63,899 nucleotides of DNA from a virus. Taxonomy: Duplodnaviria > Heunggongvirae > Uroviricota > Caudoviricetes. Made by a program: the position numbers. Each line of letters starts with the position of its first letter. The stretch's first letter is position 1. The stretch lies in IMG/VR virus record IMGVR_UViG_643348545_000007. One strand, written 5' to 3'. Shown here one piece after another: positions 20,801 through 23,800 of the stretch.

Positions 20801-23800
20801 GCAAGATATCGCCAGGATGATTTCTCAGATAACAGGAGTTGATATTCAGTATTGCCGGAGGCGGGTCGTGTGGTGCGAGAGGGTCCTTGATTCAGAAATG
20901 TTTTATGCAATGAAGCGAGAATTGGAGAAAGAACTTCTAGTGATTGCTGGATGATGCAAAATATTTTTTGTAAATGCGTTGCTTTCGAGAAATGAAAGTA
21001 GTATGTTTTGTGTATGCTCGGAGCAAAAGCGCACTGAGAAGCGAAAGAGAAATCCTGATTTACCTCGGTCGTCGATAATATTTAGGATCGGCATACTGGC
21101 TAGATTAGGTAAAGGCCTCGGCAGAAATGTCGGGGCTTTTTGTTTGCACAACAGGTAAGAGCATTGAACCCGCAGACCTCGTGGAATTGGTGAAAGGTGT
21201 GCGCAGTGCTCTTATCGTTGTGGTGAAGCTCAATGGCGAGCTAGCAGACAGGCGACTGTGAAAATACTAGTCATGTAGCGGATCGCCGCGCGTATTGTAA
21301 TCGGCAGCGCACCGATGGGAGCTGGTTCGATTCCGGCCGCCACAATCCAAACTGAGCCGTAGCCTCTGGGTGTCCTGAATTCATCAGTGATAGTTACGCT
21401 GCGGCCTTCTACATACGATTTTTGTGAAAAGCGGGTGGCAAGAGGCTGCGAAATTTTTAAATACCTCACAATTCCACAGCTTGATGATTGTCTGGCTGCC
21501 GGAGAATTTGTTAAAAATTACATCGCGTGGTGAATCCCCCTCAGCGGCGGGGCATCTGGCAAAGTGTATGATCCAGCGAACATGCAAATTCAGTAGCCAG
21601 GCTGAATTTACCGGGAGGCACCTGGCACCATGCGACAGACAGAAATTAGGCTATACTTCAGCCCCTCTCCGGAGGGGCTTTTCTGTGCAGGATGTGTCAC
21701 AGTTTCCTGAATTCTGAGTACTGTCCTGTTACTCAGGGTGCTATATTTTCTGACGTGATGAAAGTCTGCCGGAAGGCGGAACGTATCGGAAATGACCCAG
21801 TAGAGAAAACGTTGACTCAGATACCGATGCTGAGTTACCGGGAAACCGGCATCACATGACCGCTATCCTTCCAGGCTCGCTCCGGCGGGCCTTTTTACTG
21901 CAGAAAACAGTTTTCCCGTAAAATGCCACGTTACTCACAATTCAGGCTGGCGATTATTGTCTGGCCAGCGGGAAGTTTGTTAAAAAAATATGGCATGGTG
22001 AATCCCCTGTGCGGAGGGGCATATCAGCGACAGGTGTTTGGTCACACCCCTTATCCTTTCTGGTGCGGGTTCAGGTGCTGATACTGAACTCACCGGGAGG
22101 CACCCGGCACCATGCATGAACGGTACATAGCGCTACTCTCCAGCCCCTCTCCGGAGGGGCTTTCTTGTTGGATAAAAAAAAGCCCGCGCCGGGAAGCGCG
22201 GGTGGCAAGGAATAAACAACAAAACGTGAAGTGATCAATTTTCAGCTGGCGAATAATACCCGACAGTAATCACTCTGCGCAACTGTATGGTCTTTTTCGT
22301 ATTGCGGGCTGTAGTCATCCTCCTGTTTCTGAACCCTTGTCCATGACTGACGTCAGCCCGCATCTTATCTTGATTGCATACACTATCCCTGCCGGGAGGA
22401 ATAATGGCATTTAAACACTATGACGTGGTCAGGGCATCATCGCCGTCAGACCTCGCAGGAAAACTGACGCAAAAACTGAAGGAAGGCTGGCAACCCTATG
22501 GTAGTCCGATTATCTCAAACGCGGGTTATGGTGCTGAATTTATCCAGGCTATAGTCGCTGAAGGGGATATGACCTCTCCGGTAGTTTCACCGGGGGGAGA
22601 TGGTACCCGGACTGTTGTTGTTGAACCAGAATATTACTTTGTCATTGCGCTGGCCGGACAGTCAAACGGCATGGCGTATGGTGAAGGCCTGCCGCTGCCG
22701 GAGACATATGACCGTCCGGACCCGCGTATTAAACAGCTGGCGCGTCGCAGTACGGTGACACCGGGTGGTGCGGCCTGTGCATATAACGACATCATTCCGG
22801 CGGACCACTGCCTGCATGATGTGCAGGATTTGAGCCGTTTTTCTCATCCGAAAGCCAGCGCAGAGCAGTATGGGTGTGTCGGACAGGGATTGCATATTGC
22901 CAAAAAGCTGTTGCCCTTTATGCCGGAAAATGCGGGTATTTTGTTAGTGCCGTGCTGTCGTGGTGGCTCTGCGTTTACAGCCGGTGCTGACGGAACGTTC
23001 AGTGAAAGTTCAGGAGCGTCGGATAAATCTGAACGATGGGGCGTTGATAAGCCGTTGTATAAAGACCTGCTGACACGCACTCAGGCCGCGCTGAAGGCAA
23101 ACCCCAAAAACATACTGCTTTGTGTTGTCTGGATGCAGGGCGAGTTTGATTTAAAACAGGGAGCGTACGCCAGTCAGCCCGCCATGTTTGATGCCATGGT
23201 GGAAAAATACCGTTCTGACCTGGCGGGAGTATCCGGTCAGTGCGCTGGTGCTTCTCCTTCTCTGGTGCCCTGGATTTGTGGTGACACGACGTACTACTGG
23301 AAGGAGACGTATTCAGCGCAATACGATGCCGTCTATGGCGCATACAAAACCAAAGCCGGTAAAAATATCTTCTTTGTGCCGTTTATGATGGATGACAATG
23401 GTCAGAAAGTCGGGACCAATGAACCGTCAGAAGACCCGGATATTCCGGCTATCGGGTATTATGGTTCCGGTGGACGAACGGATGCGAAGAGCTGGACAAC
23501 ATCCGATCGTAAAACCCACTTTGGTTCATGGGCGCGTCGCGGAATTATTTCCGACCGTCTGGCAACAGCCATTCTTCTGCATGTGGGCAGAGTGGCAGAT
23601 TTTGTTTCCGGGAAAGTGACAAAAGCCGCGGTTTCTTCAGGCGGAGGCGTATCGCAACCAGCACAGGAGAGTGGCGATACTCAGCCTGAAGCCGTTGTCC
23701 CGACAAAGATACAGTCAGTGCTGGCTTATGATGTGAATGCGGAAAATGCCGCTCTGGCTTCGCAGGGCTGGACGCTGACAGATGTCAAAAACACGCTGGT

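Follow-up and report, generated by a model that had tools for sequence, protein, structure and literature searches.

Convergent pairs of small RNA (sRNA) genes were described by Tree et al. in 2014 3' of the late promoter PR', at the moron site of prophages Sp3, Sp4, Sp5, Sp9, Sp10, Sp11, Sp15 and Sp17 (PMC4104026). The sRNA EcOnc27 gave Northern bands of ~235 and ~247 nt, was recovered with Hfq by cross-linking and analysis of cDNA (CRAC), and had its 247-nt form destabilised in the absence of Hfq (PMC4104026). Later work equated EcOnc27 with STnc100 and with sRNA103 of EDL933, whose overexpression raised espA and fimZ transcripts. STnc100 has been structurally linked with PasD1 and PasD2 of enteropathogenic Escherichia coli (EPEC), located between Q and a sialic-acid esterase gene, and the PasA and PasD copies are stated to be distal, not tandem (10.64898/2026.05.13.724894). 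PasD is bound by Hfq, is detected on Northern blots and has targets identified by ligating and sequencing interacting RNAs (RIL-seq), and in Salmonella LT2 chromatin immunoprecipitation with exonuclease treatment (ChIP-exo) is reported to show an RpoD and RpoN binding pattern at STnc100 promoter regions. Here we analyze positions 20955–22403 of IMG/VR virus record IMGVR_UViG_643348545_000007, a stretch of 63,899 nt (the window, to which all coordinates refer). An original prediction from the sequence alone had described this interval as an empty stx locus holding a duplicated late promoter-terminator module, resembling two PR'-to-tR' units in tandem. By sequence and structure comparison, the supposed duplicated module is a row of three predicted sRNA genes of the STnc100/EcOnc27/PasD family facing a fourth predicted sRNA gene. 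It is highly probable that the interval is the late-operon cargo ('moron') site of an stx-less, 933W-type lambdoid prophage at wrbA, carrying an sRNA-gene cassette in place of a toxin.

The repeats that had drawn attention to this interval are real. The shared motifs, the identical terminator hairpin and a minus-strand hairpin with an A8 run are all present, with small corrections to how they had been reported. GGTGAATCCCC lies at 21529–21539 and 21997–22007, and ACCGGGAGGCACC(T/C)GGCACCATGC at 21610–21633 and 22092–22115; ACCGGGAGGCACC is preceded by T in copy 1 and by C in copy 3, and the reading 'CACCGGG' is thus valid for copy 3 only. The hairpin GCCCCTCTCCGGAGGGGC is identical at 21661–21678 and 22143–22160, and a T-rich run follows each. 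Both copies of the proposed two-copy module are in place, but a third, diverged unit sits between them. The two copies are only 59% identical overall; units 1 and 3 are old paralogues and not the product of a recent duplication. Scaffold and terminator are conserved between them, whereas the internal hairpin region and the 3' stretch are not. Across the interval we counted 11 terminator-like sites, against 1.7 ± 1.3 in shuffled sequence.

Units 1 and 3 both match the full STnc100 model of Rfam (RF02076, model positions 1–206, gathering score 47 bits). Unit 1 (21488–21688, plus strand) scores 139.9 bits (E 6.8e-32; hit 21495–21688); its putative promoter consists of TTGTCT at 21488–21493 and TGtTAAAAA at 21509–21517, and it is predicted to yield an RNA from ~21525 to 21686 with a candidate seed at 21634–21660 and a terminator at 21660–21679. 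Unit 3 (21957–22172, plus strand) scores 129.8 bits (E 2.6e-29; hit 21964–22172), with the same two promoter elements at 21957–21962 and 21978–21986, a predicted RNA from ~21993 to 22170, a candidate seed at 22116–22142 and a terminator at 22142–22161. It is 84% identical to the single-copy unit of locus L018 and 83% identical to unit 1 of a diverged array in locus L032. The counterpart in phage 933W reaches 207.7 bits and lies 75 nt past stx2B; AsxR, on the opposite strand, converges on it from immediately downstream, and the EcOnc27 probe of Tree et al. falls inside this 933W counterpart.

We next considered the fold. RNAalifold, applied to an alignment of 31 distinct units from the window, 933W and IMG/VR loci, returned a closing helix in which GCAUGGUG pairs with CACCAUGC, a 5' hairpin, two further hairpins and a terminator, with 99.2% of cells paired. 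Compensatory changes on both sides of a pair occur at 12 of the 32 pairs, against 4.1 ± 1.3 in shuffles, none of 500 of which reached the observed count; sliding the 3' partners by one to three columns left 1–5 compensatory pairs. The minimum free energy (MFE) fold of unit 1 reproduces the consensus. The fold starts at the base aligned with the PasD2 RNA-seq 5' end (GCATGGTGAATCC), and the predicted 5' end of unit 1 aligns with that end as well. Just upstream of the fold, and outside it, a TTTGTTAAAA block is nearly invariant, as expected of a −10 region; we interpret this as an extended −10 element (TGtTAAAAA), preceded by TTGTCT at a distance of 18 nt. Starts are predicted at 21525, ~21753 and 21993, which would give RNAs of ~145–180 nt. 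A search for a sigma-54 promoter upstream of the units, made by eye only, did not find the GG-N10-GC spacing.

Between the closing helix and the terminator, each unit carries a single-stranded 3' stretch of 14–27 nt that occurs as discrete alleles across the family. The three units of the window have three different stretches, that of unit 1 resembling the 933W allele and that of unit 3 the commonest allele. This variable stretch is likely the seed; the predicted seed of PasD occupies the same position in the literature on that sRNA.

Unit 2 (21739–21899, plus strand) is the diverged member of the three. It has an extended −10 element, TGcTATATT, at 21739–21747, a predicted RNA from ~21753 to 21897 and a terminator at 21873–21892. 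Its Rfam score of 30.0 bits (21724–21899) falls below the gathering score of 47, but nhmmer gives it 108.7 bits, so that homology is clear; by the Rfam rule its sequence classes it as a diverged relative and not as an STnc100 member. Helices P1 and SL1 are kept through pair-preserving changes. In a diverged array lineage (loci L031, L032 and L053) that is ~72% identical, the promoter, helices and terminator of unit 2 are kept, and the changes in its first hairpin all preserve pairing. Sequence of the unit 2 type is found in 673 of 5426 complete E. coli genomes (~12%), mostly at 90% identity or more. A 55-aa open reading frame (ORF; 21692–21859) overlaps the unit and matches PHROG 23557 (2.2e-45); its ATG is ATA in L032, so that the start codon is not conserved, which favors reading unit 2 as an RNA gene.

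Facing the three units on the minus strand is a predicted sRNA gene of the EcOnc08/21/42 type (22174–22363), 82% identical over 356 nt to prophage PP6 of E. coli E2348/69. The A8 run (22174–22181) and the G+C-rich hairpin after it (22183–22202) read on the minus strand as CCCGCGCTTCCCGGCGCGGG followed by T8, forming a strong intrinsic terminator and its U-run, and a CCUUGCC seed lies at 22204–22210. The 3' part reads CACGUUUUGUUGUUUAUUCCUUGCC and then the terminator, and its last 55 nt are nearly identical to the EPEC RNA 'E2348C_1409.E2348C_1408.IGR'. That RNA is a RIL-seq sRNA candidate, Hfq-bound and estimated at 182 nt, with chimeras to the 5' untranslated regions of cfa (767) and dppA (197) and to tir; its targets share GGCAAGG, complementary to CCUUGCC, and it has been equated with EcOnc08/21/42 of enterohaemorrhagic E. 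coli (EHEC) (PMC8550237). The 5' end would lie at ~22247 if an AsxR-type promoter is used (−35 at 22282–22277, −10 at 22258–22253), at ~22363 by EPEC homology, or further still. About 30 of the 35 bases of the published EcOnc08/21/42 Northern probe match 22252–22286, and the RNA measured ~271 nt by Northern blot (PMC4104026); both suggest that the RNA reaches further upstream than the AsxR-type promoter predicts.

The relation of this RNA to AsxR is one of position and promoter. The two minus strands are conserved from the nanS-p start codon to a TTGCGC box, beyond which the transcribed bodies differ completely. TTGCGC, paired with a TAAAAT −10, makes a fitting promoter for the AsxR transcript as published, and the window has TATTAT at equal spacing. 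Searches of 22140–22420 for AsxR and AgvB (RF02703, RF02702) gave no hit at E up to 10, the body and terminator being different, and we rejected membership of either family. By sequence, the minus-strand sRNA is thus a putative positional counterpart of AsxR with a homologous promoter, and not a member of its family. We also rejected pairing of the minus-strand sRNA with the three units, for which duplex energies were no better than in shuffles (fraction at least as good 0.21–0.71). The locus occurs in 743 of 5426 E. coli genomes, with no feature annotated under the matches listed. In E2348/69 PP6 (locus L006, 18008–19800), the neighboring STnc100 unit is split by ISEc13 into a 5' part (18008–18101) and a 3' part (19651–19793) around a transposase gene (18112–19485); the minus-strand sRNA next to this split unit is intact and is the one that RIL-seq detected.

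The surroundings place the array at the position of stx. At the left end of the window, the WrbA C-terminus (1–579, minus strand) adjoins an integrase gene (576–1910, minus strand), in keeping with the proposed wrbA integration, and the region 24400–49000 matches many Stx2a-converting phages at ~90% identity across 82% of its length, which bears out the Stx2-phage-like backbone. The interval runs from a 208-codon ORF (20328–20954) to a 657-codon ORF (22404–24377, plus strand); the latter, the first late gene past the sRNA cassette, encodes a nanS-p-type esterase, as had been proposed, with Pfam domains DUF1737 (5.9e-17), SASA (1.4e-09) and DUF6645 (5.7e-27). The gene order of 933W is Q, PR', tRNA genes, stx2AB, STnc100, AsxR and nanS-p, and comparison with it agrees that the interval corresponds to the stx position. 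A tblastn search of the whole window with Stx2A and Stx2B of 933W gave no match (best E 3.5), and the interval has no stx-like ORF; the identical query detects Stx1 at 55–57% identity in other loci, so its sensitivity is adequate. The seven ORFs that were scanned within the interval all lack a Pfam match. The description 'empty stx locus' therefore holds as a statement of position; as a statement of history it does not separate loss of stx from never having had it: no remnant of stx is present, and the Q/PR' module has no relation to its 933W counterpart.

The entire interval is held at 99% identity or more by phage PhiR5_2 and 17 E. coli genomes. In E. coli JNEC-KY204 (locus L004, 1–2700), a prophage with a 99.9% identical Q-to-nanS-p interval is integrated beside ynfG and not at wrbA, which suggests that the central module travels between prophages with differing integration modules.

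To place the array among its relatives, we took a census of 80 IMG/VR loci chosen by nanS-p. At least one STnc100 unit is present in 74 of the 80, and every unit is on the nanS-p strand. The 15 loci with stx have exactly one unit, just after stxB. Among those without stx, 51 have one unit, 8 have an array of three, in two diverged lineages, and 6 have none.

The 208-codon ORF upstream of the interval (20328–20954, plus strand) occupies the position of Q, after ninH, and matches PHROG 753, 'anti-termination protein Q-like', at E 3.5e-68. Searches of the 208-aa protein against Pfam, NCBIfam and PDB sequences were empty, and homology to lambda Q was rejected, there being no similarity. An AlphaFold2 model built on 30 homologues (mean pLDDT 75.9) returned phage 21 Q as all of the top eight Foldseek PDB matches (6p1b, 6p1a, 6p1c, 6p18, 6jny), with probability 1.0 and target-normalised TM of 0.60–0.68, but with E of 0.06–0.3 and a root-mean-square deviation of ~11 Å. 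The protein looks to belong to a little-characterised branch of Q21-type antiterminators. PGAP calls the protein 'hypothetical'.

Directly after this gene lies a separate candidate for the late promoter. A conserved block with a −35 element (TTGCTT, 20979–20984), a 17-nt spacer and a −10 element (TATGTT, 21002–21007) is followed, five bases past the −10, by a −10-like TATGCT (21013–21018) that is invariant across four phages: the window phage, Cronobacter ENT47670, Salmonella UPF_BP1 and the bat-gut phage Flyfo Tbat2_3. In the latter three, as here, the block lies directly 3' of the Q-like gene, and in all four it is followed by a short leader with its own strong terminator. In the window, the leader (~130 nt) folds at −39.7 kcal/mol (z = −3.3) and ends in a 13-bp hairpin (21111–21140) and T-run that align with lambda tR'; blastn homology to lambda begins exactly at this T-run, with 21137–21167 matching lambda 44777–44807, the end of tR'. 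Tested as a PR'-tR' unit, 20979–21146 (plus strand) shows every expected part, namely a promoter after Q, an early −10-like element, a short leader and a strong terminator. The conserved block after the Q-like gene and the lambda homology from the tR' T-run together locate PR'-tR' here. Such a sequence is characteristic of late promoters that depend on Q and have a sigma-dependent pause, and from it we predict the transcription start, Q binding and pausing.

Downstream of tR' is a lambda-like untranslated late leader (21145–21445, plus strand), homologous to the lambda tR'-to-S region in a collinear alignment; its segment 21341–21445 is 87% identical to lambda 44936–45039 by blastn. Inserted relative to the lambda leader is a tRNA-Arg(gcg)-like cloverleaf (21274–21345, plus strand) with a good T-arm (GGTTCGATTCC). 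ARAGORN reports it only at -ps85 and -ps80, and not at -ps90, -ps95 or default settings, and Rfam does not report it; neither ARAGORN at default nor Rfam finds tRNA genes like those upstream of stx in 933W. The likeness of the cloverleaf to the 933W tRNA genes is unremarkable, and it could be a remnant of the tRNA genes that Stx phages carry ahead of stx.

Short repeats mark the borders of the cassette. The 12-mer GCGGGTGGCAAG brackets it as an exact repeat at 21431–21442 and 22198–22209, spaced by 767. Lambda has one copy, exactly where its homology to the window stops, and the right copy in the window forms the seed and the 5' half of the terminator of the minus-strand sRNA. The pair may be a recombination junction or the relic of a second copy. 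Homology of 22190–22404 to the region upstream of lambda S was rejected, as only the 12-mer aligns. Units 1 and 3 each have a conserved CTCACAATTC box (21465–21474 and 21934–21943), present in 933W too, ~55–60 nt upstream of their predicted starts. The inverted complement CCTGAATTCTGAGTA (21706–21720) precedes unit 2, which is flanked by 15-nt inverted repeats (21706 and 21932), and a related GTGTCCTGAATTC is found at 21370–21382, within the lambda-like leader. The CTCACAATTC box could mark where longer EcOnc27-type isoforms begin, a site for a regulator or a module border.

These features suggest how the locus might work. The layout runs from the gene with a predicted Q21 fold through PR'/tR', the lambda-like leader, three STnc100-type units and the convergent sRNA to nanS-p and the lysis and virion genes. 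Each plus-strand unit would be a self-contained gene, with an extended −10 sigma-70 promoter, a three-hairpin scaffold, a variable seed and a G+C-rich terminator, whose RNA would start at GCAUGGUG and close the scaffold by pairing of that segment with CACCAUGC. In the lysogen, by analogy with the homologues, the units would be transcribed individually, their RNAs would bind Hfq and pair in trans with host and prophage mRNAs, and the convergent minus-strand RNA would do likewise from the other strand. Three different seeds would mean three target sets, and the unit terminators would keep lysogen transcription out of the late genes. Upon induction, as in lambdoid phages generally, the Q21-like protein would load at PR', and polymerase would pass tR' and the three sRNA terminators to reach nanS-p and the lysis and morphogenesis genes.

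Several observations weigh against this account. A consensus promoter scan lists none of the proposed promoters, and the hexamers are weak by consensus; the proposal draws on conservation and on alignments to the 5' end of PasD2 and to the AsxR transcript as published. A PasD-type start predicts ~175 nt, less than the EcOnc27 Northern bands of ~235 and 247 nt, and it is possible that the longer forms start near the CTCACAATTC box or are processed from the late or stx transcript. Folded alone, unit 3 has an MFE structure that departs from the consensus, units 1 and 3 are followed by U-runs that, for strong binding of Hfq, are short or interrupted, and unit 2, under the Rfam threshold, may be inactive. 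Finally, the E-values of the Q21 fold match (0.06–0.3) are weak.

We then weighed other explanations of the array. As first proposed, the modules would be two tandem PR'-tR' units, each giving a short constitutive late leader RNA and a Q loading site. Each does combine a promoter-like element with a structured ~170-nt transcript and a strong terminator, in outline like lambda PR'-6S RNA-tR', and the place of the modules is between Q and the late genes, on the late strand. Yet the Q-like gene is directly followed by a separate PR'-tR', which is conserved with that gene in three other phages and whose terminator aligns with lambda tR', and the conserved PR' block is not repeated at the modules. 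These begin 350–850 bp beyond PR'-tR', 530–1000 bp past the Q-like stop codon, and so are not directly after Q. In 933W, the counterpart of the module lies after stx2B, ~2 kb downstream of the annotated PR'/qut/tR', and the module occurs beside unrelated Q types (933W; E2348/69 PP2 and PP6), showing no co-variation with Q. We give this proposal next to no credence, and the tandem units are better read as STnc100-family sRNA genes. A coding explanation fares equally poorly. The interval would encode small proteins, namely the 55-aa ORF, a 97-aa ORF (21424–21717) and the minus-strand ORFs of PhiR5_2, with the repeats being coding sequence; hypothetical coding sequences (CDSs) are indeed annotated here in PhiR5_2 and some RefSeq genomes, and the 55-aa ORF has its PHROG match. 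That match shows only that the ORF was predicted before, however. The scanned ORFs lack Pfam matches, the 55-aa ORF loses its ATG in L032, its amino-acid changes cluster in SL1, where nucleotide changes preserve pairing, no Shine-Dalgarno sequence lies at a usable distance, and the family-wide covariation supports RNA structure. Protein coding is accordingly most improbable as an explanation of the repeats.

Two other explanations deserve somewhat more weight. The units could be mainly cis-acting parts of the late transcript, such as processing or stability signals or a put-like RNA modifying RNA polymerase, and not independent trans-acting sRNA genes. In 74 of 80 loci, every unit is on the late strand and the distance by which it precedes nanS-p is fixed, the 5' scaffold is far more conserved than the 3' stretch, and the EcOnc27 isoforms are longer than the promoter-based prediction. 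Against this, each unit has its own strong terminator, needless for a cis antitermination element, and a near-invariant extended −10 block just upstream of the fold; in uninduced cells, the homologues occur as discrete and abundant RNAs that are bound by Hfq and have trans partners, and RpoD is reported to bind at Salmonella STnc100 promoter regions. We regard a mainly cis-acting role as quite improbable. Slightly less so, although still unlikely, is that the array is decaying junk from recombination between prophages, with at most one functional unit and unit 2 dead. The 30-bit Rfam score of unit 2, the border repeats (the 12-mer at 21431 and 22198 and the 15-nt inverted repeats at 21706 and 21932) and the unit split by ISEc13 in PP6 would fit such decay; the three-unit order, unit 2 included, is nevertheless kept in the ~72% identical lineage with compensatory changes in unit 2, and the matches to unit 2 in 12% of complete E. 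coli genomes, most of them at least 90% identical, also speak for maintenance. A cassette of sRNA genes at the cargo site remains the reading we prefer.

A further step from the sRNA cassette is more tentative. Unit 3 shares 83–84% identity with single-copy units elsewhere and with the first unit of the diverged array, and we entertain, as a possibility we would not yet bet on, that the array is a modular 'seed cassette' system in which three promoter-scaffold-seed-terminator units with different seed alleles are exchanged between prophages by recombination at short shared boxes, making the stx-equivalent site a swappable regulatory-RNA locus. If so, unit 2 would define an unannotated STnc100 subfamily, and the minus-strand RNA, with its G/U-rich stretch and CCUUGCC seed, may act directly on GcvB-type targets where other prophages carry the anti-GcvB sponge AgvB. 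Temperate phages would then retune host post-transcriptional networks through the stx-equivalent site.

Other consequences follow from the sRNA genes themselves. Promoter-terminator-like blocks at the stx position of lambdoid phages can be sRNA genes and not late promoters, which corrects a misreading, and the late promoter of this Q-like family is placed at 20979–21146. Among the RefSeq and phage records listed, annotation over all four RNA genes is either 'none' or hypothetical CDSs. An stx-less wrbA relative that keeps, and even multiplies, the sRNA partners flanking stx suggests that these sRNAs are selected independently of the toxin.

Two other Rfam matches lie outside the interval. At 17670–17857, isrK (69.2 bits, 17670–17747) and C4 antisense RNA (66 bits, 17773–17857) stand directly 5' of an antirepressor-like ORF (17911–18582), forming a P1/P7-type c4-ant immunity module in the nin region. 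Close to the right end of the window, 62233–62318 on the minus strand matches sRNA-Xcc1 (74.5 bits).

Compared with lambda PR'-6S RNA-tR' and StxS of Stx2a phages, 20979–21146 is alike in its promoter directly after Q, early −10-like element, short leader and strong terminator; its promoter sequence is unrelated to lambda PR', and the Q of the window is predicted to have the phage 21 fold, unlike lambda Q. The repeated modules are not that element. Their likeness is to STnc100, EcOnc27 of Sakai Sp5 and sRNA103, with which units 1 and 3 share the full-length model match, closing helix, hairpins and terminator, on the same strand and at the same place between the PR' cargo site and nanS-p; with PasD2, the units share the 5' end. 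Unlike these relatives, the window has three tandem units, not one, no stx upstream and a unit 2 below the Rfam threshold, and its units vary in their 3' single-stranded stretches, both among themselves and relative to the 933W allele.

The convergent RNA shows a similar mixture of shared and private features. It has in common with EcOnc08/21/42 and the EPEC intergenic sRNA a near-identical 3' part, the CCUUGCC seed and the position upstream of an esterase gene; its terminator stem differs from the EPEC one at a few bases, and the EPEC copy adjoins an insertion sequence-disrupted STnc100 unit whereas the window copy adjoins an intact array. With AsxR it shares the −35 TTGCGC and the sequence upstream of it, but it is without the conserved ~42-nt 3' region that defines AsxR, AgvB and EcOnc03. 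The three-unit array, the unit 2 subtype and the short repeats at the module borders were not described in the literature searched. As in the moron pairs of Tree et al. (EcOnc27 and AsxR in Sp5/933W), the terminators of the window face each other within ~15 nt, just upstream of the DUF1737/nanS-p gene. The layout has been known since 2014, and this locus adds a new instance of it; the three-unit array is nonetheless common.

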